From positions 296,793-360,792 of the forward strand of contig JAQUQW010000001.1 of NCBI GenBank assembly GCA_028716245.1: a stretch of 64,000 nt of DNA, in the 5' to 3' direction. Under the pieces are notes generated by a model that did no database searches, had not been told where the DNA came from, and was given only the letters and a program-made list of their open reading frames with translations. Position numbers and translations under genes: made by a program. This document shows, piece after piece, positions 3,142 to 61,930 of this stretch. Each line of letters opens with the position of its first letter. The first letter of the stretch is position 1. Source of the stretch: Candidatus Omnitrophota bacterium (GTDB lineage: Bacteria > Omnitrophota > Gorgyraeia > Gygaellales > Profunditerraquicolaceae).

Positions 3142-4908
3142 ATGGCTGGTCTTATTCCAGAAAATTTATTAGAAGATATCTTAAGCCGCGTGGATATCGT
3201 TGAGGTGATCTCCGGCTATATTCCGCTTAAGAAGTCTGGCCGTAATTTTAAGGCTAACTGTCCGTTTCACCATGAAAAAACAGCATCCTTTATGGTATCC
3301 GCGGAGCGCCAAATCTATCATTGTTTTGGCTGCGGTGAATCCGGTAATGCCTTTAAATTCCTTATGCGCCATGAGCGGATGGAGTTCCCTGAAGCGGTTG
3401 AGGTGCTGGCAAAAAAAACCGGGGTTATTTTACCTGAACAAAATAACCCGGCGGCGGCCAAGGCAGCCAGCTTAAGCAGCCAACTGCATAAAGTCAATGA
3501 GCTGGCAGTAAGTTTCTATGAGAATAATTTGCATGCTGCAAGTTCGGCTTCAGCATGTAATTATCTCTTAAATAGGGGCGTAAAACTCCAAACGGTAAAG
3601 GAGTTTCATTTAGGCCTGGCAACCAGCAACTGGGACAGCCTAATCAATTATTTAAGGTCAAAAAATATCGCTCTTTCGCTTCTGGAGCAGGCAGGCCTGG
3701 TCATGCCTAAAGATGCCGGGGGATTTTATGACCGTTTTCGCAACCGGATTATTTTTCCTATTTTTGATATTCGCAGCCGGGTAATCGGTTTTGGCGCCAG
3801 GGTAATGGACAATACCCTGCCTAAATATATCAATTCTCCGGAAACCCCGGTCTATACAAAAGGAAGGAATCTTTTTGGCTTGAATTTATCTAAAGATTTT
3901 ATCCGGGATGCCGATTGCGCGATAATTGTCGAAGGTTACCTGGATTTTATGATTCCTTATCAGGAAGGGGCCAAGAACATTGTAGCATCGCAGGGTACCG
4001 CCCTTACCTTAGAGCAGATCAAGTTGCTTAAGCGCTATACTCATAACGTAGTGATGATTTACGACGGGGATACGGCAGGGGAGATCGCCACCTTAAGAAG
4101 CCTGGATATCCTTATTGAAGAAGGCGTGAATGTAAAAGCAGTCCCGCTGCCAAAAGGGATGGATCCTGACTCCCTGGTGCGTAACCAAGGTATCGAAAAC
4201 TTCAAAGCCAAAGTCAATAATGCCAGCAGCTTATTTGATTATAAACTTAATGTTTTAAAGGGCCGTTATGATCTAAAGGAAGCCCACGGCAAAAGTAAGA
4301 TTGCCTCTGAAATGCTTTTGACGATTAATAAGTTTGATAATGCGATCCTGCGGGGAGAATACATTAAGAAATTAGCCGAGGAGATTAAAACTTCCGAACA
4401 TTATATTCTGGAGGAGCTGAACAAATTAAAATCGCCTGTTCTGGTGCGCCAGGCTGCTCCGGAAATTTTAGCGAAGAATAAATCCGAGATTAATCCGGCG
4501 GAAAAGCTTTTAATTAAATTCATGCTGGAGGAGAAAGAATTAATCTCAAGGATCATGCAGGAGCTTTCTCCGTCCGATTTCCAGGATTCCCGGACCGCTA
4601 AAATTGTTTCAGTAATGCATGATTTAGTCCTCCAGGGAAAAAATATCGCCCCCAGCATATTGATGAATTATTTTAGCGAAGATGACGCCAATCAGTTGGT
4701 TTGTGAAACTATGTTTATGCCCGAACTTTTAGATCAGGAAAGGGAAAAAGCCATTAATGACTGCATTGCGCGCATCAAAGTAGAAAGGCTAAAATCAAAG
4801 CGGGAACATTTACACGTGCAGATAAAAAGCGCCCAATTATTGGGGGATGAGCCGAAGTTAAACAGGCTCATTCAGGAATTTCATAATCTTATAAAGAAAG
4901 GCGACTAA
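3142..4908 (+). CDS. dnaG: DNA primase
   Basis: CHC2 zinc finger (CPFHHEKTASFMV...YHCFGCGESGN), TOPRIM region (IIVEGYLDF, DGDTAGE), and the conserved position ahead of rpoD. Confidence 0.9.
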   Translation: MAGLIPENLLEDILSRVDIVEVISGYIPLKKSGRNFKANCPFHHEKTASFMVSAERQIYHCFGCGESGNAFKFLMRHERMEFPEAVEVLAKKTGVILPEQNNPAAAKAASLSSQLHKVNELAVSFYENNLHAASSASACNYLLNRGVKLQTVKEFHLGLATSNWDSLINYLRSKNIALSLLEQAGLVMPKDAGGFYDRFRNRIIFPIFDIRSRVIGFGARVMDNTLPKYINSPETPVYTKGRNLFGLNLSKDFIRDADCAIIVEGYLDFMIPYQEGAKNIVASQGTALTLEQIKLLKRYTHNVVMIYDGDTAGEIATLRSLDILIEEGVNVKAVPLPKGMDPDSLVRNQGIENFKAKVNNASSLFDYKLNVLKGRYDLKEAHGKSKIASEMLLTINKFDNAILRGEYIKKLAEEIKTSEHYILEELNKLKSPVLVRQAAPEILAKNKSEINPAEKLLIKFMLEEKELISRIMQELSPSDFQDSRTAKIVSVMHDLVLQGKNIAPSILMNYFSEDDANQLVCETMFMPELLDQEREKAINDCIARIKVERLKSKREHLHVQIKSAQLLGDEPKLNRLIQEFHNLIKKGD

Positions 4909-4911
4909 CAC

Positions 4912-6465
4912 ATGAAGAAAAAAGAACGACCCACCAAAGATATGGAAAAATTGATTGCCTTGGGCAAACAGAAGGGTTTTCTTACTTACGATGAAGTCAA
5001 TGATCTTCTGCCCGAGGATCTTTCCAGCACCGTGGCCATCGACCATCTTTTTGAGTTGCTGGGCAATGAAGACATCCAGGTAGTTGAAGGCGAGGAGGAT
5101 GCCGGCTTGTCCGCAAGCCGGGCTGCCCAGGATAAACAAAATCTGGCTGCCAACCGGGAGGAGATTATTTGCGAACAGCTTAAGAGTGAAGAGCGTTTTA
5201 TGCCTTTAGATGATCCGGTAAAGATGTACTTGAAGCAGATGGGTTCAATTTCGCTATTGAGCCGGGAAAATGAAATCGAGCTGGCTAAAAAGATTGAGGA
5301 TGCCGAAGATAAATTCAAGCGCGCGGTCCTGGTGACTAAATTTGCCAGAAATGAGGTTTTAATTGTTGCCAATGATATCTTGGAAGACAAGATTAATATG
5401 GAAGAGGTGGTTAAAGAAGATATCCGGATAAAAAAAAGCAGCGTCCTGGGAAGGTTTAAGCGTATTTTAGCCAAAGCTAAGCAGACCCGCAGCGATAGTA
5501 ATGCGATTAATCTGATATTACAGCTTAACTTTACAACTTCCGTAATTGAAGCCGCGGTGCGTAAGCTGAGCCTTTTGATCCGGGAGCTTGATTATCTGAA
5601 GCGTTCGGGAAAAAGGAGTAATCTGCGCTGCCGCCAAATACTAAAAGAACTTGCTCAGCCCTACGGTAAAATTAAAGAGCAGATGAAGTTGATAAAATCT
5701 GCGCATCTTAAGTTTAGCCGCACGAAGAAAAAACTAGTAGAGGCAAACCTGCGCCTGGTTGTAAGTATTGCCAAAAAATATACTAATCGCGGCCTTTCCT
5801 TTTTGGATTTAATACAAGAAGGAAATATCGGATTGATGCGTGCGGTAGAGAAATTTGAATATAAACGCGGCTACAAATTTTCCACTTACGCAACCTGGTG
5901 GATCCGCCAGGCAATAACCCGTTCAATTGCCGATCAGGCGCGGACCATCAGGATACCGGTGCATATGACCGAAACGATCAATAAGATAATCCGTTTCTCA
6001 AGGGTCTTTGTCCAGAAGAACGGGCGTGAGCCCACTCCTGAGGAGATCGCCCATAAAATGCGTTTTCCGCAGGGTAAAATAAAATCCATATTAAAGATTG
6101 CGCAGGAGCCCATTTCATTACAGATGCCCATCGGGGATGAAGGGGATACGCATTTTGGGGATTTTATTCAGGATAAAAAAGCGGTTTCCCCCGCCAATGA
6201 AACCGTCCGTTCCATGCTCAAAGACGAAATGAATTCCGCTTTAAGTACCTTGACTGAAAGAGAGAAAAAAATCCTGGTTTTGCGTTTTGGTATCCAAGAC
6301 GGAGCCGCGCGCACTTTAGAAGAGGTAGGCAATGTTTTTAAGGTTACCCGCGAAAGAGTCAGGCAGATTGAGGCTAAAGCTTTAAAGAAACTCAGGCATC
6401 CGTCACGTTCGCGCAGATTGCGCACCTTTATGGATATGACATTGGCACACCAAAGGGAATATTGA
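4912..6465 (+). CDS. rpoD: RNA polymerase sigma-70 factor
   Basis: Region 2 ([28 protein letters not shown]), region 3 and region 4 ([29 protein letters not shown]). dnaG-rpoD synteny. Confidence 0.9.
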
Positions 6466-9301: not shown

Positions 9302-9723
9302 GCCATTTGAAAATTTACATCGACGGGGCATCGAAAGGTAATCCGGGCGAAAGCGGGGTGGGAGTTGTTATTTATCAGGATGACCGCATTATCAAAAAAA
9401 TTTCAGAATATATAGGGAGCGCTACGAATAACGCGGCTGAATATACGGCCTTAATCTATGCCCTTGAGGAGGCGTTATTATTAAAAGCCAAGAGTTTAGA
9501 GATTAACACGGACAGCCAGCTTTTGGCCAGGCAATTAAATAAGCTCTACAAGGTTAAACACGCGGGTATAAAAAATTTTTACAACCGGGTAACGCATCTT
9601 TTGACGGGTTTTGATAAAGCGCTGATTATTCATATTCCGCGGGAGCAAAATAAATTAGCGGATAAATTGGCAACCGAAGCGGTTAAAAAAAGCAGGCAGA
9701 ACGTGGCTGCCCTATTGAGATAG
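9298..9723 (+). CDS. rnhA: ribonuclease HI
   Basis: IYIDGASKGNPGESGVGVVI, TNNAAEYTALIYAL and DSQLLARQL catalytic motifs of RNase H type 1. Confidence 0.85.
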   Translation: MSHLKIYIDGASKGNPGESGVGVVIYQDDRIIKKISEYIGSATNNAAEYTALIYALEEALLLKAKSLEINTDSQLLARQLNKLYKVKHAGIKNFYNRVTHLLTGFDKALIIHIPREQNKLADKLATEAVKKSRQNVAALLR

Positions 9724-10025
9724 GGAGGAAAGTCCGGGCTCCAGAGGATAACGTAACGGGTAACCCCCGTCTCTTAACGCAAGTTAAGACGGATTCGAGC
9801 CACAGAGACGAGTAGCAGCTAAGGCTGCGAGGTGAAACGCGGCAATCTCTACGTGGAGCAAAGCAGAATAGGAGATGAGCGCTGATCCGGCGCGTTCCGT
9901 ATTTGCGGGAAATAATCTCGGGTAAGCTGCTAAAGTTCCGGGAGAAATTCCGGGATTGAGAGGAATAGCCACTAATCGATGCGCAGATTCGCATCAAGAC
10001 AGAACCCGGCTTATTCTGCCTGCTT
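9690..10025 (+). ncRNA. rnpB: RNase P RNA (bacterial type A)
   Basis: Universally conserved GGAGGAAAGTCCGGGCTCC at 9724-9742 and ACAGAACCCGGCTTA at 9999-10013. P1 helix AGCAGGCAGAA (9691-9701) pairs with TTCTGCCTGCT (10014-10024). The 5' end overlaps the last 30 nt or so of rnhA. Confidence 0.8.
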
Positions 10026-10047
10026 AATTATTAAAGAGGAGGAAGTT

Positions 10048-21169: not shown

Positions 21170-23899
21170 ATGAAAAAGCTATTATTCAAATACAGTGGCA
21201 GAGCGCTAGCAAGTTTGGCGCTTTTATCTTTATCGGCTGGTTTGGTTTTTGCCCAAAGCCAGGCGGCAGATTATCTTTGTGAATTGGGTAAAACTTTCTA
21301 TTCTTTAGGCAAGGTTGACGATGCCCTTTCCGAATTTCATAAGGCCCTTCTGGCGGATCCTGCCAATGAAACTGCCAAATTGTATATTAATAAAATTTTT
21401 AATCAAAACTTGAATTCTTCTTCTGAAAATATGGCCCCCGTAAGCGCTCCTGTCTTAGAAGCTAACAATTCAACTGAACCCAAAAAATATATGAGTAAAG
21501 AACAGGCTATGGATGAGGCGATGCTTAAGATGGAACCCAATACTGCCTCAAAAAAAGAGAGCAAAGGAATAAAGGCCGGGCCGCTTACCATAAGCGGACA
21601 GATGCAATTAAGCTTTGGCGTAACTGCCGATGATTTTATCTGGAAAAGGGCTAATTTTGATTTAAATGAAAAATCGAAAAGCTGGCGGATGAGTTCAGAG
21701 GCGGGTTTTAATAACCGGTTCAATACTTTTGATCCCCGGATCTACGATGGCTTAGCTGTTAATTTAGATACGGAAAATAAAGAAGGCTTCAATCTTCATT
21801 CCAATCTTACGGTTGACCCCTGGAGTTTTACCGGTAAGAGCAGTAAAACTACCATTACCAACGGTGGAGACCCCGCCGAAGTAGAATTATTATATTGGTC
21901 AAACACCGGGCTTGTGGTAAATCACACTGTTTACGGGGCGCTGAAAGGAACCACTCTTAATATTCCGGAGCTAAAGGTTGTTGATGAAAAAACTACCGCG
22001 ACCACGATTAATGGCTTTAATATCCCGAGCATGAAGATCCAGCGCCAGTTTCAGCCGGTGCGTGAATTATGGATGGATTACGCAAATGACCAGATAAAAT
22101 TCCGCGCTTTCCCCATGGGCCTGCAGGATCAGGCTTACAGTTCCGATGATCCTATGGGAATCAGCAATCACCATATCTGGTGGAAGGATAGCAGCTGGCT
22201 GCGTAGTTATACCCCCGGAGCGGCCCATTCCGGAAACACTCCCGTTGATTTTACCAAAGGCATTTGGGATGATTCCCTTTCATTTCTGACCAAAGATTCT
22301 ACCGGCAAATACCTTACGGCTTTAAGGGGCTTTTCTTTTAGCTTTTTACCGGATGAAAAATCTTCATTCGATACAACCTTTGCCACTCCTAAGCATCTCT
22401 GGCAGGATTACGGACAAGCGGATAACGTGATTAATGCCAGCCGTCTTAAACATTATTTCACTGATAATTTTATGGCTGGGGCAACCTTTACCAGCCGCAC
22501 GGGCTTTATCACTGAACCTAACCAGAAGCTAGACAGCCAGAATTATGTTGGCGGAGTAGATATTGGTTATGAAATGACCGAAGGATTAAAAGCACAGGCT
22601 GAAGTTTTATCCTCCCAATCTTTTTATGATATGAGTAATTCCGTTTTTAAGACACAGGCCCGCGGCAACGCCTATTATTTTTCATTTATCAGCCGTTACC
22701 CCCAGAAAAGTTTAATGGATTTAAAATACGGTTACGATGAGATAGCTTTGGATAAAGATGAAGATTACCTGCTGAAATCCAAATTTTACTTAAGCAGGAT
22801 GGACCGCGGATTTGATTCTTCTCTTTCCAGTTACCATGAAACCCGCCAGGATACCTTTTGGTCAAGGCATATTCATTTTCGTAAACCAATGGATTATTAT
22901 TCCGCAGGATTATACGATTCTACTACTAATTGGGGGGAGCTTAATTCAACACGGATTGGTGATGGCATTGATGCCGGCAGAAATACCATTGGTTTTCGCG
23001 TTGAATCATCCCTGAAAGATAAAGTCTATAACCTTTTCGACGTACGCAATGTCCATAATGTTAACGGTAAATTTATCGAGAATGTGGTGCGCGATGAAGC
23101 AACGGTAGGAGTTACGGATAAATTAAGCGCCAAAATTCTGGGTATTTACCAGAAACTTCCGCGTACCCTTGGCGGGACCGATCCGTTTATCTATGACGGC
23201 AATACCGGTAATTTTTTTCTCAATGCCGCTGTCCCCGATGGGAATAACCCGTCGATTATCACCGGATCCTTTGGCCTTAATTATGATTTCTTTGATTGGT
23301 TAAGTTTAAACGGTATTTACGAACGCACCAATGATTATTATCTGGCTTATGATGGTTTTCCGGCCAATACTTTACGCGACGATACCAATTTATTCGGTAG
23401 ATTTCATCAAAATGATAACCTTTACTCATTTAAACAGCCGTTTCTTTATAGCCAAGGCGGGTTTCCTCAAGCCCCATACGAATATTATAATGTTTTTAAG
23501 ACCGGCCTAAGAATAATGCCGATTAATAACCTGGAGCTTTACCTTGATTATACGCGTAATCAATTCGAGAGTGCCGCCCAAAACTCGGATGGGATGAACC
23601 ATGTTGGCATTGAAATGACTTATATGCCAACTAAGAAGTTCGGAATGGCTTTAAAATATACTTACTCCCGGTGGCAGGATACTGACCGGCTGGTTGCCGG
23701 CAACACTAACCCGCTTGGCCACCATAATTTCTTCGGTGAATTTAGATATCTGCCTTCCAGGGATGATGAATTTATCCTGCAATACGGAGAGGGCAATACC
23801 AGTAATTTAGGTAACTTTTCCCTTGATCCTTACGGAGGCACCTCCCTCACCATTGATACTGCGCATATCTTGCGCGCCTATTACCGCAGAAAGTTTTAA
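21170..23899 (+). CDS. large secreted outer-membrane beta-barrel candidate (909 aa) with N-terminal TPR-like helix pair
   Basis: Signal peptide (MKKLLFKYSGRALASLALLSLSAGLVFAQS), a beta-rich body with alternating hydrophobic residues, and a C-terminal YYRRKF ending in Phe (OMP targeting signature). Confidence 0.6.
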   Translation: MKKLLFKYSGRALASLALLSLSAGLVFAQSQAADYLCELGKTFYSLGKVDDALSEFHKALLADPANETAKLYINKIFNQNLNSSSENMAPVSAPVLEANNSTEPKKYMSKEQAMDEAMLKMEPNTASKKESKGIKAGPLTISGQMQLSFGVTADDFIWKRANFDLNEKSKSWRMSSEAGFNNRFNTFDPRIYDGLAVNLDTENKEGFNLHSNLTVDPWSFTGKSSKTTITNGGDPAEVELLYWSNTGLVVNHTVYGALKGTTLNIPELKVVDEKTTATTINGFNIPSMKIQRQFQPVRELWMDYANDQIKFRAFPMGLQDQAYSSDDPMGISNHHIWWKDSSWLRSYTPGAAHSGNTPVDFTKGIWDDSLSFLTKDSTGKYLTALRGFSFSFLPDEKSSFDTTFATPKHLWQDYGQADNVINASRLKHYFTDNFMAGATFTSRTGFITEPNQKLDSQNYVGGVDIGYEMTEGLKAQAEVLSSQSFYDMSNSVFKTQARGNAYYFSFISRYPQKSLMDLKYGYDEIALDKDEDYLLKSKFYLSRMDRGFDSSLSSYHETRQDTFWSRHIHFRKPMDYYSAGLYDSTTNWGELNSTRIGDGIDAGRNTIGFRVESSLKDKVYNLFDVRNVHNVNGKFIENVVRDEATVGVTDKLSAKILGIYQKLPRTLGGTDPFIYDGNTGNFFLNAAVPDGNNPSIITGSFGLNYDFFDWLSLNGIYERTNDYYLAYDGFPANTLRDDTNLFGRFHQNDNLYSFKQPFLYSQGGFPQAPYEYYNVFKTGLRIMPINNLELYLDYTRNQFESAAQNSDGMNHVGIEMTYMPTKKFGMALKYTYSRWQDTDRLVAGNTNPLGHHNFFGEFRYLPSRDDEFILQYGEGNTSNLGNFSLDPYGGTSLTIDTAHILRAYYRRKF

Positions 23900-23901
23900 A
23901 A

Positions 23902-23966
23902 CTAGGGAGCGCTTCTATTTTTCTTTCAGAACTATGTAACAAAAAAAATAGAAACGGTCCCTAGTT
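23902..23966. terminator. bidirectional intrinsic terminator hairpin between convergent genes
   Basis: CTAGGGAGCGCTTCTATTTTT at 23902-23922 is complementary, with 2 mismatches, to AAAAATAGAAACGGTCCCTAG at 23944-23964. It has T-runs on both sides. Confidence 0.6.
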
Positions 23967-23967
23967 T

Positions 23968-26900
23968 TTATTCAAGATAAATATCGATTTGCTTAATTTG
24001 GCGTGATCTTACTTTTTGGGCATAAAGCGGGCCAAGCGTTGCGGATTTTATTTCTATAGGGTGATCGTTTTCAAAAATGATTATTTTGGAAATTTTTGCC
24101 GCGTTTTTTCCAAAAGTATTTTTTCTTTTCGGATTATGGTAAGTTACCCGGATTTGGCTTAAGAAATTAAAAGCATATTTTCCATTCCTATCGAATAACC
24201 AGCCGGCCAGGTTTGGTTTAAATGTTAAATTAAGCTCTCCGTTATTATCTAAAGAAAATGGGCAGGCCCCGGCATTCATGATCAACCAGATATTCAGGAA
24301 TTCCGCGGTTGAGCCGGAGAGCCTGGCGACAAATCCGTTTCCGTGCAATTTTTTATCGGCAAACACGCTGCTTACCAGAAAAGAGGAATTTTCAAGTATG
24401 CTGCGCCCGTATCTTTGCGGGTCCTGGAAAGGGATGAGCACGTTTTTAAATTCCGCGTAAAATTCATCAATCAACCCGCCTTTAAGCAGCTCCAGGATAT
24501 ATTTATACTCCATATGCAGCCAGATGGATTCATTTTCCAGCCAACCGGGAGTGAATACCCGACATCTGCCGATTTCTTCCGGCATAGAACCAAGGTTGGA
24601 AGTCACTTTATACATTCTAAGTTTTTTATCAAAAAGCGCGCTTTTCTTGGTTGATTTATGCAAAGACAAGAGATGTTTTTTGTCTTCGGTAAGCCTTAAG
24701 GCATGCATTTGGCCTTCAAGAAAGAGAGGGACTGTTTTTTGGGTAAATTTTTTCGGTTTTATACGGTGATCATCAATCAAATCATATTCGGTAATCTCAT
24801 TAATAAAATATGAATTATAAATCCCTTGCCTGCTGTTAAAAGCTTTGCTTAATCCCAACTCAACTTTCTTTAATGCCGCGTCCACAAAACTAATAAGCTT
24901 GGCAACGGCCAAATTTACCGAAATCCCGGAAAAACCAAGGCGTATATTAGAACGGTATGTTTCTTTTAGCGCATTGCTCTTATCCCAATAAGTAAAATCA
25001 TCCTCAGAGAACAAGAGAGAGAGCCCCTCGATAAAATTAGAGATTTCATCGGCAAGTTCAATTTCATTAATCTTTGAATTTTCTAACGCCCCTTTGATCA
25101 TCTTAAGCAGGCGTTTTAGTTCAAAGGTTTCACAACTGGAGGAACCCAAAAGCGCCGGCAGCCCGTTAAGAGAATCAAACCAGTTAGGTTTATTGGCTTC
25201 CATCTCGATACCGGTACCAAAAGGGTCAAGGGAGGCCAATTTATTCGCCGCCAGGCACAGAAGTTTAGCGATAAGGGTAGTGTAATAGATTTGGCCGCTG
25301 CCGGACTGTGCCCTTAAAAGATGCGGATTATCCAAACGTTTGCGCAGTATTTCTTTTTTGGTGGCATCAAGCACAAGGGAGTGCAATTGGCGCGGCAGGC
25401 CGTTATAAAGGACGTATCTTTCGCTGCGCGGCCTGACTAATTCGGCGTTATCATAGAAGGAAAAAACTTTTCGGTGAAAGAATAATTCATTAAATCTTTC
25501 AGGGTAAATCCCCAGGTAACTGTCGATTAAGTCCAGGTTATAGGTCCAGTGGTCAGTCCAAAAGCCTTCAGCATGCTCAGCTTCCTGTGATTTTAGCGCG
25601 GAAGAGAGTATCAGATTTAGAAAATCATCATAAGAACATTTAAGTTTTATTTTATTATCTTCAATAAAGATAATTAACTCACCTGGGGTGAAGGTTTTTT
25701 TAAAAAAGGCGCTAAGTTTATCGATATCATTTTTTTCAGCCACGGCTGCCAGCAGCCTGTAAAGATCCAGGTTGTCTTTGAGCAGGAAACTTTCGCCTTT
25801 TACGATCAGGGGATTAAAACCGTCAGCCTGGATTAGATTCATGAAGAAGACAATATTTTCATCGTTTATCTCAGGATTAAACCAGGGATCATTGCGCCGG
25901 TTTTGGTTTGTATCGCGGTAATTACCGTTGCCTTGGGAAAAATAAGTCGGCTGGAGCACAAACTTATTGTAATCCCTTTCCAGGTCACCGTGTTTACGTG
26001 AATAAAGATAAAAAACCACCCCGGATTTAAAAACTTCCGGGTAGCCGCCGCGCATAATGTTATCCAGGTAAGTCTGTCCGGCGTATAAATCAAAAGCTTT
26101 AGAGCTGCTTTGAGTTAAAATATCATCTTTTAATTCCCGGATTAGTTTGGAACTTTCCTTCATTTTGGTTTCTATGTAACCGAATTTCATAATTTTTCCA
26201 ACCGAACTATTTAAAGTTTTGGTGTCGCGGACCTGGCCGATTACCGAATAAAATGTTTTTTGCTCTTTGGCCCCCAGCTCAAGGCTCATTAAAAGCAAAG
26301 CGCTGGGAGTTTTACTTTTGGTCATTTGCTGGGCAGGATATTGAAATTTATGCTTGGCCAGGAATTGGGCAGGGTAAGAGAAATCGGTTACTGCCCCAAA
26401 AACAGCTTCAGGGTCGACTATTGGCCGGATAAGTTGGGATTTGGTACCATTAAAATGAAAACCCATATAAAAATTCCCGTGCTCAATATGCACTACCTCC
26501 GGCCGGTCCGAAGGGTCAACTGCTAATTTATAAAAAGGGACATCATTATTCAGGTTATCGGTATTCATCCAGGCTTCGATAGTGCGGCCGAGTTTCTTCA
26601 GGAAAAAATTGTTCGTGCCAAAAGGGACAATCTGCGGCAGACCGTCAATAATCTCCATGGACCTGGGTTTAGGCGACGTATTTTCAATAGAAACGGTCCG
26701 GCTTAAGCCGGCGTAGGTATCATTAGGAATATTAAAATATTCTACGCGTGTTTTTATCCCTAATGTCCGGTTTTCTTCTTCCAAAATGAGTTTATCCGAA
26801 TCTATACGCATAGAGTTGGTTATCTGGTACTTTAAATTCAGGCAGCCGTTGTGAAACGGCTCGTAATAGAGAAGTTTTTTTGCGGATTTAATTTTAATGA

Positions 26901-27272: not shown

Positions 27273-27330
27273 TTGATGGAATCCAGGATGTTGACTTTTA
27301 ATAAAAGGGTGTTAGAATATTAAGAAATAA

Positions 27331-27420
27331 CACCCCGCGCTACCTGGCGTTTAATTGAATTGCGCCAGTATCCGCCTCGTGGCGGATTATAATGCGGGTG
27401 TGCCCTTGTGGGCAAGGAGG
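27331..27420 (+). promoter_or_regulatory. structured leader element copy A (ACCCCGCGC ... GCGGGTG family) immediately upstream of gatC
   Basis: CACCCCGCGC pairs with GCGGGTG, enclosing hairpins CTGGCG/CGCCAG and TCCGCC/GGCGGA. A terminal hairpin GTGCCC-TTGT-GGGCA abuts the SD AAGGAGG. It is homologous to the elements at 33631, 50851 and 61881. Confidence 0.4.
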
Positions 27421-31868: not shown

Positions 31869-32645
31869 TTGCGGTCAATGAAAAATAAGCCTCTGATTGT
31901 TATCGCGGTAATTTTAGTTTTACTTTTATTCATTGCCCTTATTCTGACACCGATTTATAAAAAAGTGCCGGGCAAGAAAGTCTTTGCAAAGGCAAGAATC
32001 GCCATCGTAATTGATGATTGGGGTTATCATTTGGATAATCTGGCAATCATCAAAAAAATAAAGGTGCCTTTGACCTGCGCGATTTTACCGAACTTAAAAA
32101 ATTCAAGCCTTGTCGCCCAAAAATTGAATGGTTTTGGTTTTGAAATAATCCTCCACCTGCCAATGGAGCCTAAAGAAAAAATCAGGTTGGAAAGCAATAC
32201 CATCACCTCCGTTATGGATGCCGGCCAGATTCATGATATCCTGGATAAAGATTTAGCCTCGGTTATCTTTGCCAAAGGAATTTCTAACCACATGGGATCA
32301 CGGATTACCGAGGATAGAAAGATCAGCGCAATAGTAATGGCCGAAGTAAAAAAACGTAAGCTATATTTCCTGGATAGTTTTGTAACCGCTAAATCCGTCT
32401 GCCGGGAAATTTCCGCAAAGATAAAAGTAAGATTCGCCAGAAGAGATGTATTTCTGGATAATCAGGATGATCCGGTATATATAAGAGACCAGTTGATGAA
32501 ATTAATGAACCTGGCCAGAAGGCAAAAAACTGTAATTGCTATCGGCCATGATCGTAAAAACACTTTAACGGTATTAAATGAAATGCTTCCAACAATGAAA
32601 AAAGAAGGCTATAAATTTGTTTTTGTTTCGGAGATAGCTAGATGA
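31869..32645 (+). CDS. divergent polysaccharide deacetylase family protein (YibQ-like)
   Basis: N-terminal TM helix, then IAIVIDDWGY...LTCAILP...ILHLPMEP, typical of the YibQ/DUF610 family. Confidence 0.65.
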   Translation: MRSMKNKPLIVIAVILVLLLFIALILTPIYKKVPGKKVFAKARIAIVIDDWGYHLDNLAIIKKIKVPLTCAILPNLKNSSLVAQKLNGFGFEIILHLPMEPKEKIRLESNTITSVMDAGQIHDILDKDLASVIFAKGISNHMGSRITEDRKISAIVMAEVKKRKLYFLDSFVTAKSVCREISAKIKVRFARRDVFLDNQDDPVYIRDQLMKLMNLARRQKTVIAIGHDRKNTLTVLNEMLPTMKKEGYKFVFVSEIAR

Positions 32646-33625
32646 TTGTCTTAGGGGTTGAGAGTTCTTGCGATGAGACCGGGGTTGCCGTAGTCAGGGA
32701 CGGGAAGAAAATCCTGTCTAACGTAGTTGCCAGCAGCCTCAAGATACACAGTAAACACGGTGGAGTAGTTCCGGAGATTGCCTCGCGTATGCAGCTGGAA
32801 AGCATCGCCGGAGTTTTCTCTGAAGCAATTAAGATCGCCAAGATAAGACCGGAGCAAATAGATTTGATATCCGTAACCGCCGGCCCCGGATTGCCGGGAT
32901 CACTGCTGGTGGGGATTTCTTTTGCTAAAGCATTGGCATTAAGTTTGGACAGGCCGATACTGGGCATTAATCACATCCATAGCCATGTTTATGCCAATCT
33001 GCTTTGTCATCATAATATCAAAACGCCCTGCGTAGCTTTAGTTGTTTCCGGCGGCCACACAACTCTTTTTTATATAGAAGATTTCAGTAAAATTAAAATC
33101 TTGGGGCAAACTTGCGATGATGCCTGCGGCGAAGCTTTTGATAAAGTGGCAAAAATTATGGGAATGGGTTATCCCGGAGGCCCGCTGATTGAAAAATTAG
33201 CCAAGGGCGCAGATGGCCGTAAAATTAAGTTTGCCTGCTGCGGGACGGACAATGAGCTGGATTTTAGTTTTAGCGGCATAAAAACCGCGGTCTTATATTA
33301 TTTAAAGGATAAAAAAGCAGGAAAAAAAATAAAAAAGGATCTGGCTGCTTCTTTCCAGGAAAGCGCAGTCAATGCTTTGATCAGAAAATCGCTCCTTGCC
33401 TGCAAACGTAAAGGTGTTAAAAATCTTTTAATTGGCGGAGGCGTAGTTGCCAACAGTTGTTTGCGTCAAAAATTCGCGCAGAGCTCTAAAAAAAACGGGA
33501 TTAATTGTTTTTTTCCAAGCATCAATTTATGCCTGGATAATGCGGCTATGGTTGCCGGCCTAGCGGATTATCTCTATAAACAAGGTTTGAGAAGCAGTCT
33601 TAACCTGAATATGGAATTTAACTAA
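32642..33625 (+). CDS. tsaD: tRNA N6-adenosine threonylcarbamoyltransferase
   Basis: MIVLGVESSCDETGVAVV, the HSH metal-binding region (INHIHSHVYA), and GGGVVANSCLR. Confidence 0.9.
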   Translation: MIVLGVESSCDETGVAVVRDGKKILSNVVASSLKIHSKHGGVVPEIASRMQLESIAGVFSEAIKIAKIRPEQIDLISVTAGPGLPGSLLVGISFAKALALSLDRPILGINHIHSHVYANLLCHHNIKTPCVALVVSGGHTTLFYIEDFSKIKILGQTCDDACGEAFDKVAKIMGMGYPGGPLIEKLAKGADGRKIKFACCGTDNELDFSFSGIKTAVLYYLKDKKAGKKIKKDLAASFQESAVNALIRKSLLACKRKGVKNLLIGGGVVANSCLRQKFAQSSKKNGINCFFPSINLCLDNAAMVAGLADYLYKQGLRSSLNLNMEFN

Positions 33626-33630
33626 CTAAT

Positions 33631-33727
33631 ACCCCGCGCTAAAGACACCCGACGCTAAGAGGTATTGTGTAGGTGTGCGCTAAGTAGCGCAAATTGCGCG
33701 GGTGTGCGCTTTCTGCGCAAGGAGGAG
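33631..33727 (+). promoter_or_regulatory. structured leader element copy B (longest copy, with internal duplication) upstream of the mgtC-bactofilin operon
   Basis: ACCCCGCGC ... GGTATTGTGTAGGTGTGCGCTAAGTAGCGC ... GCGCGGGTG, then hairpin TGCGC-TTTCT-GCGCA, then AAGGAGG. The 3' module co-varies with copy A. Confidence 0.4.
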
Positions 33728-33730
33728 AAA

Positions 33731-34177
33731 ATGCCTACTGATTTAGAAATGGTTACGCGTTTATTATTGACTTTAACCTTAAGCGGATTAATTGGCCTTG
33801 AGCGGCAGGTCCACCGCAGGGATGCCGGCTTGCGCACGCATATACTGGTAGCTTTAGGTTCATGTCTTATAATGTTGACATCTATATATGTTTTTGATAT
33901 ATATAAAGACAGTGCTTCGCTGGATCCGGCCCGTATTGCCGCCGGGGTAATCACCGGTATTGGATTTCTGGGCGCTGGCGCCATAATCCGTGAACCTGAA
34001 CGGATCCGGGGGCTGACTACCGCTGCCAGTTTATGGGTAGTTGCCGGCATTGGTTTAGCGGTAGGAATCGGTTTTAATAAAGTAGCAATCTATACCACAA
34101 TTTTGGTATTAATCGTTTTGCATTTCTTGCGTTACGTGGAAGGATCGCTCACCAAGGAGGATAAACATGGCATTTAA
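33731..34177 (+). CDS. MgtC/SapB family membrane protein (N-terminal MgtC domain only)
   Basis: LIGLERQVHRRDAGLRTHILVALGSCLIML...AAGVITGIGFLGAGAI. ATG at 33731 with an AAGGAGG RBS. The ORF-track start at 33665 lies inside the leader element and is rejected. Confidence 0.7.
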   Translation: MPTDLEMVTRLLLTLTLSGLIGLERQVHRRDAGLRTHILVALGSCLIMLTSIYVFDIYKDSASLDPARIAAGVITGIGFLGAGAIIREPERIRGLTTAASLWVVAGIGLAVGIGFNKVAIYTTILVLIVLHFLRYVEGSLTKEDKHGI

Positions 34178-34670
34178 AAAGAAACTGGAGGAAAAAACTC
34201 TGGATGTGGACGCGGCAATGCAGGGGACTTTAAGCTTCAAAGATCCGGTTAATCTGCGTATTAATGGAAAATTCGAAGGAAATCTGGATACCCGCGGCAA
34301 CCTTACGGTCGGACCTACCGCCATAATTAATGCCGATATTATCGGGGATAATATTATTATCGGAGGCAAGGTTAAAGGTAAAATTACCGCCCGCGAACGG
34401 CTGACTCTCTTGCCGCAAGCCGTAGTTGAGGGCCATATTTATCCGGCAAAACTTAATGTTGCCGAAGGCGCTATTCTTGAAGGCCAATGTTCGATGCTCC
34501 ATGATTTTCTTAACTCCGAGCAGCTGGCAAAATACCTGGAAGTAGAATTAAGCTCGATCATGGAGTGGGCTAATTCGGGAAAGGTCCCGGCGAATAAAGA
34601 GAATGATGATTGGAAATTCGAACGTAAAGCCATAGACAGCTGGGTGGCTGCGGGTAAAATAGGAAAATAA
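34167..34670 (+). CDS. bactofilin (polymer-forming beta-helix protein) fused to a C-terminal excisionase/MerR-type HTH domain
   Basis: Bactofilin repeat pattern NLRINGKFEGNLDTRGNLTVGPTAIINADIIGDNIIIGGKVKGKITARERLTLLPQAVVEGHIYPAKLNVAEGAILEGQCSM, followed by SEQLAKYLEVELSSIMEWANSGKVPANKENDDWKFERKAIDSWV (HTH_17-like). Overlaps mgtC by 11 nt. Confidence 0.75.
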   Translation: MAFKKKLEEKTLDVDAAMQGTLSFKDPVNLRINGKFEGNLDTRGNLTVGPTAIINADIIGDNIIIGGKVKGKITARERLTLLPQAVVEGHIYPAKLNVAEGAILEGQCSMLHDFLNSEQLAKYLEVELSSIMEWANSGKVPANKENDDWKFERKAIDSWVAAGKIGK

Positions 34671-34683
34671 ACTTACGATAAAA

Positions 34684-34995
34684 ATGAGCGAAGAAAAAAT
34701 GCTGACAGTCAGGGATGTCTCGATTATACTGGGCATATCGGAGAAGGATGTTTTAGATCTAACTGAAAACGGAACGATTCCCGGTTATAAAATAGGAGGC
34801 GTATACTTAAGGTTTAAAAAAGAACAGGTTGAGCAGTATAAAAAAACCCAGCATCACCTGCACCCAAACGCGCTCAAACAGGAATCCGCAGGTTTTGGCA
34901 GCAAGATTTCCGATTTTTTCTATTTCCACGATTTCTATATCCTGGCCGCAATTCTTATAATCCTTTTAGGATATCTTGTTTACCGGGGCCTATAG
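34684..34995 (+). CDS. membrane-anchored excisionase-type HTH DNA-binding protein
   Basis: MLTVRDVSIILGISEKDVLDLTENGTIPGYKIGGVYLRFKKEQVEQY is an HTH_17 domain, followed by a C-terminal TM helix (FFYFHDFYILAAILIILLGYLVY). Confidence 0.6.
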   Translation: MSEEKMLTVRDVSIILGISEKDVLDLTENGTIPGYKIGGVYLRFKKEQVEQYKKTQHHLHPNALKQESAGFGSKISDFFYFHDFYILAAILIILLGYLVYRGL

Positions 34996-43680: not shown

Positions 43681-43728
43681 AATAGGGACAGCGACCATTT
43701 TTTTAAAAAAAATGGTCGCTGTCCCTAT
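43681..43728. repeat. perfect 24-bp-arm palindrome in the divergent spacer between the flippase gene and tilS
   Basis: AATAGGGACAGCGACCATTTTTTT | AAAAAAATGGTCGCTGTCCCTATT, with no loop. It fills most of the divergent intergenic space. Core shared with the other palindromes. Confidence 0.5.
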
Positions 43729-43750
43729 TTTCTATGGTAAAATAAGTTTT

Positions 43751-44710: not shown

Positions 44711-44715
44711 AATCA

Positions 44716-44765
44716 GGGACCGTTTCTAGTTTTTTGGGGAAAAATAGAAACGTTCCCTAGTTTTT
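44716..44765 (+). terminator. intrinsic terminator after tilS (repeat-family hairpin)
   Basis: GGGACCGTTTCTA at 44716-44728 pairs with TAGAAACGTTCCC at 44745-44757, followed by TAGTTTTT. The right arm is nearly identical to the right arm at 23944-23966. Confidence 0.55.
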
Positions 44766-50850: not shown

Positions 50851-50900
50851 CACCCGGCGCTAATAGGTATTGCGTCGGTGCGCGCTAGGTAGCGCGGGAG
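50851..50900 (+). promoter_or_regulatory. structured leader element copy C, inserted between tRNA-Tyr and tRNA-Gly; its 3' end merges with the tRNA-Gly acceptor stem
   Basis: CACCCGGCGCTAATAGGTATTGCGTCGGTGCGCGCTAGGTAGCGCGGGAG is about 85% identical to the central part of copy B (33631-33690). The terminal GCGGGAG is the first 7 nt of tRNA-Gly. Confidence 0.4.
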
Positions 50901-50964
50901 TAGTTCAGTGGTAGAACAATAGCCTTCCAAGCTATATATGGGGGTTCGATTCCCCTCTCCCGCT
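50894..50964 (+). tRNA. tRNA-Gly (anticodon UCC)
   Basis: Acceptor stem GCGGGAG/CTCCCGC, anticodon stem ATAGC/GCTAT with loop CTTCCAA, discriminator U. Confidence 0.85.
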
Positions 50965-61880: not shown

Positions 61881-61930
61881 CACCCCGCGCTTAGCGGAAT
61901 TGTGCGGGTGTTGTCTCCGTAGACAAGGGG
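61881..61930 (+). promoter_or_regulatory. structured leader element copy D (minimal unit) immediately upstream of cimA/leuA-like gene
   Basis: CACCCCGCGC-TTAGCGGAATTGTG-CGGGTG, then hairpin TTGTCT-CCGT-AGACAA, then GGGG and the ATG at 61936. The 3' hairpin co-varies with copies A and B. Confidence 0.4.

Follow-up and report, generated by a model that had tools for sequence, protein, structure and literature searches.

On the forward strand of the 64-kb stretch of Candidatus Omnitrophota DNA analysed here (the window, meaning the whole stretch), tsaD (32642-33625; PF00814) is followed by a gene of the MgtC family (Pfam PF02308 match, 7.8e-41) and by a bactofilin gene (34167-34670). The 97-base tsaD-mgtC spacer is made up of two units, one nested in the other, of a two-hairpin sequence that recurs elsewhere in the window and across the phylum; we refer to the unit as H1-H2 and to this nested pair as copy B. 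The string that an initial annotation had quoted for positions 33631-33727 matches the sequence exactly, and its flanks are the tsaD stop codon (33623-33625) and the native Shine-Dalgarno (SD) sequence AGGAGG (33720-33725), which is separated by a 5-nt spacer from the MgtC start codon ATG (33731-33733).

The mechanically generated list of open reading frames (ORFs) does, as the annotation had remarked, begin the downstream gene at TTG 33665 and run through the whole element, and we agree with its preference for the ATG at 33731. For comparison of starts we fetched 48 metagenome loci carrying MgtC relatives at 60-90% amino acid identity; in more than 40 of them the homologous ATG serves as the start (ATGCCTAC.GAT or ATGCTTAC.GAT) behind AAGGAGG, and most are devoid of the element. 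Since the distance from the tsaD stop to the MgtC ATG is only about 10-25 nt in most of these loci, the 22 extra residues implied by the start at 33665 have no counterpart, and the Pfam MgtC domain already starts at residue 11 of the short form. The 97-base stretch is thus non-coding, and ATG 33731 is the true MgtC start.

The unit is about 46 nt long. Its conserved first hairpin, H1, has a 9-bp stem with one bulged C and an 11-nt loop (CACCCnnCGC / TWAnnGGWATT / GCGn'n'GGTG), and is followed directly by H2, a short hairpin of variable sequence, typically of 5-6 bp (4-7 bp in the family definition). A generic repeat finder missed the family, since its copies differ by insertions, and it was found by blastn-short and pattern searches. 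We scanned a GTDB-based collection, one genome per species, for exact matches to CACCCNNCGCTNNNNGGNATTGNGNNGGTG, a pattern of 20 fixed bases with a chance rate of about 1 per 1.2e12 positions, so that about one match is expected (our own arithmetic, with equal base frequencies assumed). At least 120 stretches matched; among the matches listed, nearly all are metagenome-assembled genomes (MAGs) of Candidatus Omnitrophota, recovered from groundwater, lake, marine or subsurface material, a few carry the label Planctomycetales, Margulisiibacteriota or Deltaproteobacteria, and one match, in Cupriavidus, looks like chance. The family counts given below (126 units, 123 units and so on) refer to the matches listed, and all L-numbered loci, which also include relatives of the MgtC region, lie on MAG or metagenome contigs. 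Perfect H1-H2 units are present in L079 (Margulisiibacteriota), L049 (Deltaproteobacteria) and several contigs of "uncultured Planctomycetales" MAGs; for such contigs, mis-binned or mislabelled Omnitrophota DNA seems a likelier source than a real occurrence in other phyla. Two of the Omnitrophota contigs, L075 and L025, share synteny with the window at 72-77% nucleotide identity. The same pattern gave no match in 2.9 million viral contigs, and a phage origin was rejected on that ground. Rfam 15 yielded no match for the window at gathering scores, for 33500-33850 at E<=10, or for consensus copies, and full-text literature searches on Omnitrophota/Omnitrophica returned no description of the repeat; the H1-H2 family is undescribed in Rfam 15 and in the searchable literature.

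In copy B, all parts of which are read on the forward strand, the 5′ arm of the outer H1, TACCCCGCGC (33630-33639; consensus CACCCnnCGC with one mismatch), is followed by the 5′ part of the outer loop, TAAAGA (33640-33645), in the place where TAARGG or TAAAGA precedes the inner unit in nested copies elsewhere. Then comes the inner unit, comprising H1, CACCCGACGC-TAAGAGGTATT-GTGTAGGTG (33646-33675), and H2, T-GCGC-TAAGTA-GCGC-A (33676-33691). The outer unit resumes with AATT (33692-33695), equivalent to the last four conserved loop bases, (A/T)ATT, of simple units, and ends with its 3′ arm GCGCGGGTG (33696-33704), an exact match to the consensus, and its H2, T-GCGC-TTTCT-GCGC-A (33705-33719), which lies flush against the SD sequence as is the rule in the family. 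The minimum free energy (MFE) fold recovers the outer H1, with 33631-33639 paired to 33696-33704, as well as the inner H1 and inner H2, so that the outer unit, both arms of which match the consensus, folds as predicted. A covariance model built from other genomes' copies (R1) detects the inner part (33640-33695) with 54.8 bits and an E value of 1.4e-12; this part is identical at 39/45 positions to 50851-50895, within another copy in the window (copy D, below). The inner H1 is slightly decayed, with one G/A mismatch and G-U pairs, while its H2 is of the TGCGCTAGGTAGCGCA subtype that is usual for the inner H2 of nested copies in other genomes. In the MFE fold of the whole spacer, the outer H2 loop CUUUCU (33709-33727 region), which is complementary to the SD sequence AGGAGG with wobble pairs, prefers pairing with it over formation of the outer H2. 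Pyrimidine-rich 5-nt H2 loops (TTTCT, CTTCT, TTCCT) form a recurrent H2 subclass.

The two similar segments noticed in the initial annotation, GGTGTGCGC-TAAGTA-GCGCA (33669-33691) and GGTGTGCGC-TTTCT-GCGCA (33698-33719), are real, and GTGTGCGC occurs exactly three times in the 64 kb, two of the occurrences being in copy B. They had been taken for a tandem duplication of a terminal module; instead, each comprises a 3′ arm together with the H2 that follows it, the first belonging to the inner unit and the second to the outer, and what was added is a whole second unit (H1 and H2, 33646-33691) nested in the outer H1 loop. The duplication is therefore genuine, but it is a nesting rather than a tandem copy. 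The description of copy B as the longest copy also stands, though narrowly, as its span, counted from the first arm through H2, is about 90 nt, versus about 85 nt for the copy before gatC.

The same nested layout (outer 5′ arm, TAARGG, inner H1 and H2, AATT, outer 3′ arm, H2, SD) was found at six other loci, L037 and L069 together with L095, L018, L079 and L106, in the last four of which the AATT again stands directly after the inner unit. Three loci (L101, L112 and L116) display a second nesting point, located after the GGWAT of the loop, and four (L017, L039, L046 and L082) contain direct tandem arrays of H1 plus H2. Individual copies decay: the inner unit of copy A (below) is degenerate, and that of copy B has the mismatch and G-U pairs already mentioned.

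Both stems are maintained by compensatory changes. Most H1 positions in the alignment of 126 units were fixed by the search pattern; the two remaining H1 pairs show covariation (GC 60, CG 50, AU 10 and UA 2 at one of them, GC 91, AU 27 and CG 2 at the other), and H2, a clean hairpin in 122 of the 126 units and mostly a 6-bp stem with a 4-nt loop, exhibits double changes at all 5 pairs. The proportion of paired cells is 90.8%, versus 27-53% when the 3′ partner is slid. Model matches outside the pattern bring compensatory changes at the fixed positions as well (the outermost C-G replaced by U-A, CACCT...AGTG, GGCCC/GGGCC); with these pattern-free matches included, double changes are seen at 11 of the 14 pairs and 92.8% of the cells are paired, in an alignment that is model-fitted and favours structure. 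G-U cells outnumber A-C cells (29 vs 12, p 0.012, with one ambiguous-bulge pair excluded; 11 vs 0 within H1). With all pairs counted the two looked symmetric, nine A-C cells coming from an ambiguous bulge in the CACCT...AGTG variants. Because G-U exceeds A-C, it is the sense strand that folds, either as RNA or as one strand of DNA. The H1 loop is itself conserved, reading T, W, A, n, n, G, G, A/T, A, T, T: it opens most often with TAA (62 units), then TTA (43) and TGA (15), and its GGW triplet is GGA in 82 of the 126 units and GGT in 43. A CsrA-type GGA site was considered and rejected, as one third of the loops (43/126) have GGU. The 5′ flank of the units is A/G-rich (..AGA, ..AGG, ..TAA), which is largely accounted for by the upstream stop codon (TAG/TAA) and by extension of the stem.

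We compared orthologous gene junctions with and without the unit. At the tsaD-mgtC junction it is present only in the window, in nested form, and in L154 and L161, and about 40 relatives have an empty site; overall, about 40 of 45 MgtC loci have no such element before mgtC. The mgtC-bactofilin junction is filled in L126 and L155 and empty in the window and about 33 relatives. Between larB and acsC the unit is present in L075, L121, L127, L129 and L132, and missing from the window and from L122, L124, L125, L131, L145 and L156. At this last junction the native SD sequence is kept right after the unit, as can be seen from the empty site in L145, AAT directly followed by GGGAGATAAGC-ATG, and the filled site in L121, AAT-AA followed by the unit and then GGGAGATAACT-ATG. 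In L075 (~6440-6460) and L132 (~4455-4470) the larB frame continues into H1 and is closed by the TAA of its loop; in these two contigs the inserted unit has replaced the last codons and the stop codon of larB. Because filled and empty states turn over at three junctions, the unit is an insertion-type sequence and not a gene-specific leader. The initial annotation had presented the motif as a leader preceding the mgtC-bactofilin operon; a tie to that operon is not supported for a dispersed repeat that precedes unrelated genes and tRNAs and is absent from the same junction in most relatives.

Placement of the unit is anchored on its 3′ side. A same-strand ORF with an SD sequence starts 19-31 nt after H1 in 68 of 123 units, most commonly at 26 nt, which means that the SD sequence begins where H2 ends. 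More generally, the unit's 3′ end is flush to a GGAG-type purine tract, which belongs either to an SD sequence or to the start of a tRNA-Gly or tRNA-Arg. No such anchoring is seen on the 5′ side, where between 0 and 68 nt separate H1 from the end of the preceding stop codon; we rejected compact spacers as the cause of the flush SD sequence, as the 5′ side keeps its 0-68 nt and the 3′ side keeps none. Among 65 long same-strand upstream frames, 11 enter H1 and stop in its loop, 8 at the TAA and 3 one base later, and none of the units contains an internal ORF that restarts the next gene. The downstream genes are mutually unrelated and include ndk, rpsF, rpsT, rpsP, ssb, dnaN, dnaA, glyA, metK, pilT, panD and ilvC, among others. 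By crude ORF calls, 73 units are co-directional with their neighbors, 6 lie between divergent genes and face their own gene, 9 are antisense to both neighbors and 2 are convergent.

Units that abut tRNA-Gly(UCC), tRNA-Gly(GCC) or tRNA-Arg overlap the first 2-3 tRNA bases with their H2. The 3′ arm of such an H2 consists of the first 2-3 bases of the acceptor stem (window 50881-50896, L025 707, L072 1128, L036 1035), and the H2 and tRNA folds are therefore mutually exclusive. The outer H2 pairs track the bases just before GGAG: TTG..CAA, TCG..CGA and TTA..TAA, with CGC..GCG at tRNA-Gly. The antisense units, about 10% of the total (L028, L038, L080 and six other loci), have features of their own; in the three named loci an A run comes after an H2 of the TGTTGC-nnnn-GCAACA type, and two of them, L038 and L080, have the unit beside an apparent intrinsic terminator of the opposite strand.

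The window holds six units at four sites, all on the forward strand, before gatC, mgtC, a cimA/leuA-like gene and tRNA-Gly. Copy A, before gatC (27331-27414), is nested like copy B, with outer H1 CACCCCGCGC ... GCGGGTG and outer H2 TGCCCTTGTGGGCA; AGGAGG (27415-27420) and ATG (27426) follow. Its fold has a z score of -3.4; the degenerate inner unit (27335-27390) scores 18.6 bits, and the outer unit reaches 28.3 bits as one match with a large insertion. Copy C is a simple unit (61881-61926; 65 bits) followed by the SD sequence GGGG (61927-61930) and the ATG (61936) of the cimA/leuA-like gene, which has Pfam HMGL-like/LeuA_dimer matches. Copy D, also simple (50851-50896; 60.4 bits), lies between tRNA-Tyr and tRNA-Gly(UCC), and the 3′ arm of its H2 overlaps the first 3 nt of the tRNA-Gly gene (50894-50964); the same arrangement was found in L024, L025 and L072.

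A sigma70-like site, TTGACT-16-TAGAAT, is located at 27291-27318, just upstream of copy A, and since it is directly adjacent, H1 of copy A would lie at about +5 of the transcript. It is also the nearest good promoter match for copy B, 6 kb away. The promoter scan gave no sigma-70-like site on the forward strand at 33626-33730, and the terminator scan reported no intrinsic terminator there, H2 being followed by AAGGAGG and not by a U tract. As no comparable forward-strand promoter is found near 33631, copy B fills a spacer between cistrons of a long co-directional gene string, and does not stand at the head of an operon.

Taken together, we lean towards the view that the tsaD-mgtC spacer consists of two nested copies of an Omnitrophota-specific dispersed hairpin repeat of the insertion type, comparable in kind to repetitive extragenic palindromic (REP) sequences and miniature inverted-repeat transposable elements (MITEs), and not of an mgtC-specific regulator. 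The repeat would spread as a non-autonomous insertion element, with a machinery that recognizes folded H1 on one strand, and its preferred targets would be the 5′ edge of GGAG tracts and H1 loops. Copy B may have arisen by insertion of the inner unit into an older one or by copying of an already nested composite. A REP/RAYT-like (REP-associated tyrosine transposase) or IS200/IS605-like mechanism acting on single-stranded DNA may serve as a model; it fits because the hairpin is strand-specific, has an extrahelical base and shows no clear target duplication. The H1 arms constitute an internal, not a terminal, inverted repeat. Once inserted, the unit would be co-transcribed and form a stable block of hairpins directly upstream of an exposed SD sequence, and its effect on the downstream cistron would presumably be generic, such as uncoupling of mgtC from tsaD translation or shielding of the 5′ side, with neither Mg2+ sensing nor mgtC-specific regulation expected from it.

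Several observations weigh against such a repeat. About 1 Mb of fragments contained no identified transposase or partner gene, and the ORFs located between inverted units at six loci (L004, L029, L031, L067, L070 and L094) correspond, judging by their N-terminal sequences, to dnaA, housekeeping or secreted proteins. The test for flank duplication gave a weak result, with 24-25 matches versus 18 +/- 3 in shuffled pairings, and identity between the filled and empty sites is about 70-85%, which leaves the exact insertion junctions unreadable. The phylum-wide conservation of the H1 loop and bulged C exceeds the norm for selfish repeats, and would fit a host RNA-binding factor too. The orientation bias, the flush SD sequence and the G-U excess are equally expected of a functional 5′-leader RNA. 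Finally, the comparison sequences are MAG and metagenome contigs only.

The principal alternative, which we consider appreciably less probable though deserving of serious attention, is that H1-H2 works in cis as a functional RNA module, within a system of post-transcriptional control shared by the whole phylum. The H1 loop and bulged C would be read by a conserved host factor, which could be the ribosome, an RNase or an RNA-binding protein; H2 would hold H1 at a fixed distance and keep the SD sequence open, and genes would gain or lose the module by recombination. For the downstream cistron, the outcome would be control over how its mRNA is processed, how stable it is or how its translation is initiated. 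The sense orientation with a fixed 26-nt distance to the start codon, the anchoring of the 3′ side and not the 5′ side, the prevalence of G-U over A-C on the sense strand, and the phylum-wide conservation of loop and bulge all speak in its favor. So do the sigma70-like promoters that place H1 at the 5′ end of the transcript (copy A and, by eye, L002, L040, L048 and L070) and the retention of orthologous sites, with compensatory changes in H2, before ndk, rpsF, rpsT and tRNA-Gly. However, the unit is optional at every junction that was compared; it occurs directly before tRNAs, where translation plays no part, and antisense to both neighbors in about a tenth of cases with H1 still perfect; and self-nesting, tandem arrays and decayed copies are typical of proliferating repeats. 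A CsrA-type version of the module has, in addition, the GGU loops against it.

We regard as rather unlikely, though still worth stating, a guided element homing to SD sequences, or a dedicated RNA module presenting them, in which a phylum-specific factor reads the H1 loop and bulged C. The first bases of H2, complementary to the bases before GGAG, would direct the unit to ribosome-binding sites (RBSs) and to the 5′ ends of tRNAs. If correct, this would amount to an Omnitrophota system for remodelling the 5′ edge of translation-initiation regions, one that could be programmable and could act on mRNA.

A DNA-level signal, either a promoter or an operator whose palindrome would bind a dimeric regulator, is very improbable. 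Distances to start codons and tRNA 5′ ends would suit a promoter with a short leader, and the loop remnant of copy A contains TATAAT. Against this, the arms covary rather than being conserved; nesting splits the loop and makes the arm spacing vary between 11 and about 55 nt; the genome has ordinary TTGACA/TATAAT promoters, one of them upstream of copy A; and the G-U/A-C asymmetry indicates a single folded strand. The promoter idea was rejected on the grounds of covariation, loop splitting and canonical promoters elsewhere.

Even less credit can be given to an mgtC-specific leader, Mg2+-sensing or attenuator-like, in which five GCGC blocks would fold into alternative, mutually exclusive hairpins and so turn the SD sequence on or off. 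Leaders controlling mgt genes are known in enterobacteria and Firmicutes; there are five self-complementary GCGC blocks spaced 9-10 nt apart (33677-33718), GCGC-N3-8-GCGC is observed 18 times versus 6 expected, and the MFE fold does pair the outer H2 loop with the SD sequence. The blocks, however, are nothing more than stem arms of the outer H1 and of both H2 hairpins, the spacer has no Rfam match even at E<=10, about 40 relatives with conserved tsaD-mgtC synteny are without it, and the same unit stands before unrelated genes. The least tenable proposal, to which we assign next to no weight, is that MgtC is translated from TTG 33665 with a 22-residue N-terminal extension: the frame is open from there, but no SD sequence precedes it, versus the consensus AGGAGG 5 nt ahead of ATG 33731, relatives use that ATG and are without the upstream sequence, and elsewhere this structured repeat lies in non-coding contexts.

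Other features of the window include a bacterial class A RNase P RNA (9692-10027; 166.7 bits), overlain by spurious mechanical ORFs, and a long palindrome with A/T flanks (AAAACTAGGGACCGTTTCTATTTTT ... AAAAATAGAAACGGTCCCTAGTTTT) that represents a second repeat family and lies at 23898-23968, 43681-43729 and 44713-44765. It is found at gene ends in the window and resembles a bidirectional terminator, and in several relatives (L075, L124, L127 and L130) it fills the tsaD-mgtC spacer. A third, small palindromic insert, CCTGCCTGCC-nnnn-GGCAGG(CAGG), is not present in the window and was seen in seven loci (L012, L070, L100, L102, L114, L125 and L157), often inside or beside the H2 of H1-H2 units and, in L125, within the tsaD-mgtC spacer. 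The bactofilin encoded 3′ of mgtC is fused to a C-terminal HTH_17 (excisionase-type) domain, and is followed by a second small HTH_17 protein (34684-34995) with a predicted C-terminal hydrophobic tail.

The units have practical consequences for annotation, as they create false N-terminal extensions, such as that from TTG 33665, and alter upstream C-termini, as in larB of some relatives. The 30-nt H1 signature is a near-specific Omnitrophota marker, which could aid binning and the spotting of mis-assigned contigs. A conserved pair of hairpins set against RBSs across an uncultured phylum implies a conserved partner, whether a single-strand nuclease/transposase or an RNA-binding factor, and for mobile DNA it is unusual to choose as targets GGAG tracts and the hairpin loop of the element itself.

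Of the known systems, the Mg2+-responsive leaders of mgt genes, namely the M-box riboswitch and the enterobacterial mgtA and mgtCBR leaders, resemble copy B in being a structured 5′ region before an mgt gene with possible alternative hairpins; copy B differs from them in having no Rfam match, in not being conserved with mgtC, and in having its sequence also before unrelated genes. Derivatives of IS200/IS605 elements are hairpin-ended, transpose as single strands and read their target by base pairing beside the hairpin. H1-H2 shares with them a strand-specific hairpin with an extrahelical base and insertion by a short specific sequence without obvious duplication, and the first H2 bases (TTG, TCG, TTA, CGC) are complementary to the bases before GGAG (CAA, CGA, TAA, GCG), although this complementarity could equally be explained by ordinary maintenance of a hairpin. 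In contrast to IS200/IS605, no transposase, pair of left and right ends or cleavage sites are defined for H1-H2.

REP sequences carry a GT(A/G)G head, occur as inverted doublets and are associated with a rayt gene flanked by inverted REPs (PMC2817692). The H1-H2 repeat is similar to REPs and to the bacterial interspersed mosaic elements (BIMEs) as a short, G+C-rich, imperfect palindrome with many extragenic copies and compensatory maintenance, in forming co-transcribed intercistronic hairpins, and in having a recognition sequence conserved lineage-wide (PMC2817692). It departs from them in lacking the GT(A/G)G head, with neither GTAG nor GTGG in the 5′ flank; in its composites, which are same-strand nestings or direct tandems and not the inverted doublets of BIMEs and REPINs; in being anchored 5′ of the next gene's SD sequence instead of trailing the upstream gene; and in its bipartite build of conserved H1 and variable H2. 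No RAYT was found in the ~1 Mb of fragments.

The Neisseria REP2 and Borrelia IR repeats are found directly before ORFs and have two stem-loops ahead of an RBS, with promoter, RBS and ATG all supplied by the repeat (PMC3184786). H1-H2 likewise presents two stem-loops and then an RBS directly upstream of ORFs, but its SD sequence and ATG are native, being present at empty sites, and the promoter of copy A lies outside the unit; moreover, REP2 and IR are species-level families whereas H1-H2 is phylum-wide, and the likeness is one of layout. The mycobacterial interspersed repetitive units (MIRUs), which are 40-100 bp long, intercistronic and co-oriented, with tandem copies, filled and empty sites and overlap with the end of the upstream ORF (PMC3184786), are matched by H1-H2 in its intercistronic, co-oriented and tandem arrangement, its filled and empty orthologous sites and its overlap with the upstream ORF end. 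MIRUs, however, are defined by small translation-coupling ORFs, and H1-H2 by a conserved hairpin with a specific loop; MIRUs also come from an unrelated phylum, and self-nesting is not reported for them. What distinguishes the Omnitrophota repeat from all of these is its anchoring to SD sequences, its bipartite build, its self-nesting in the hairpin loop and its phylum-wide conservation.

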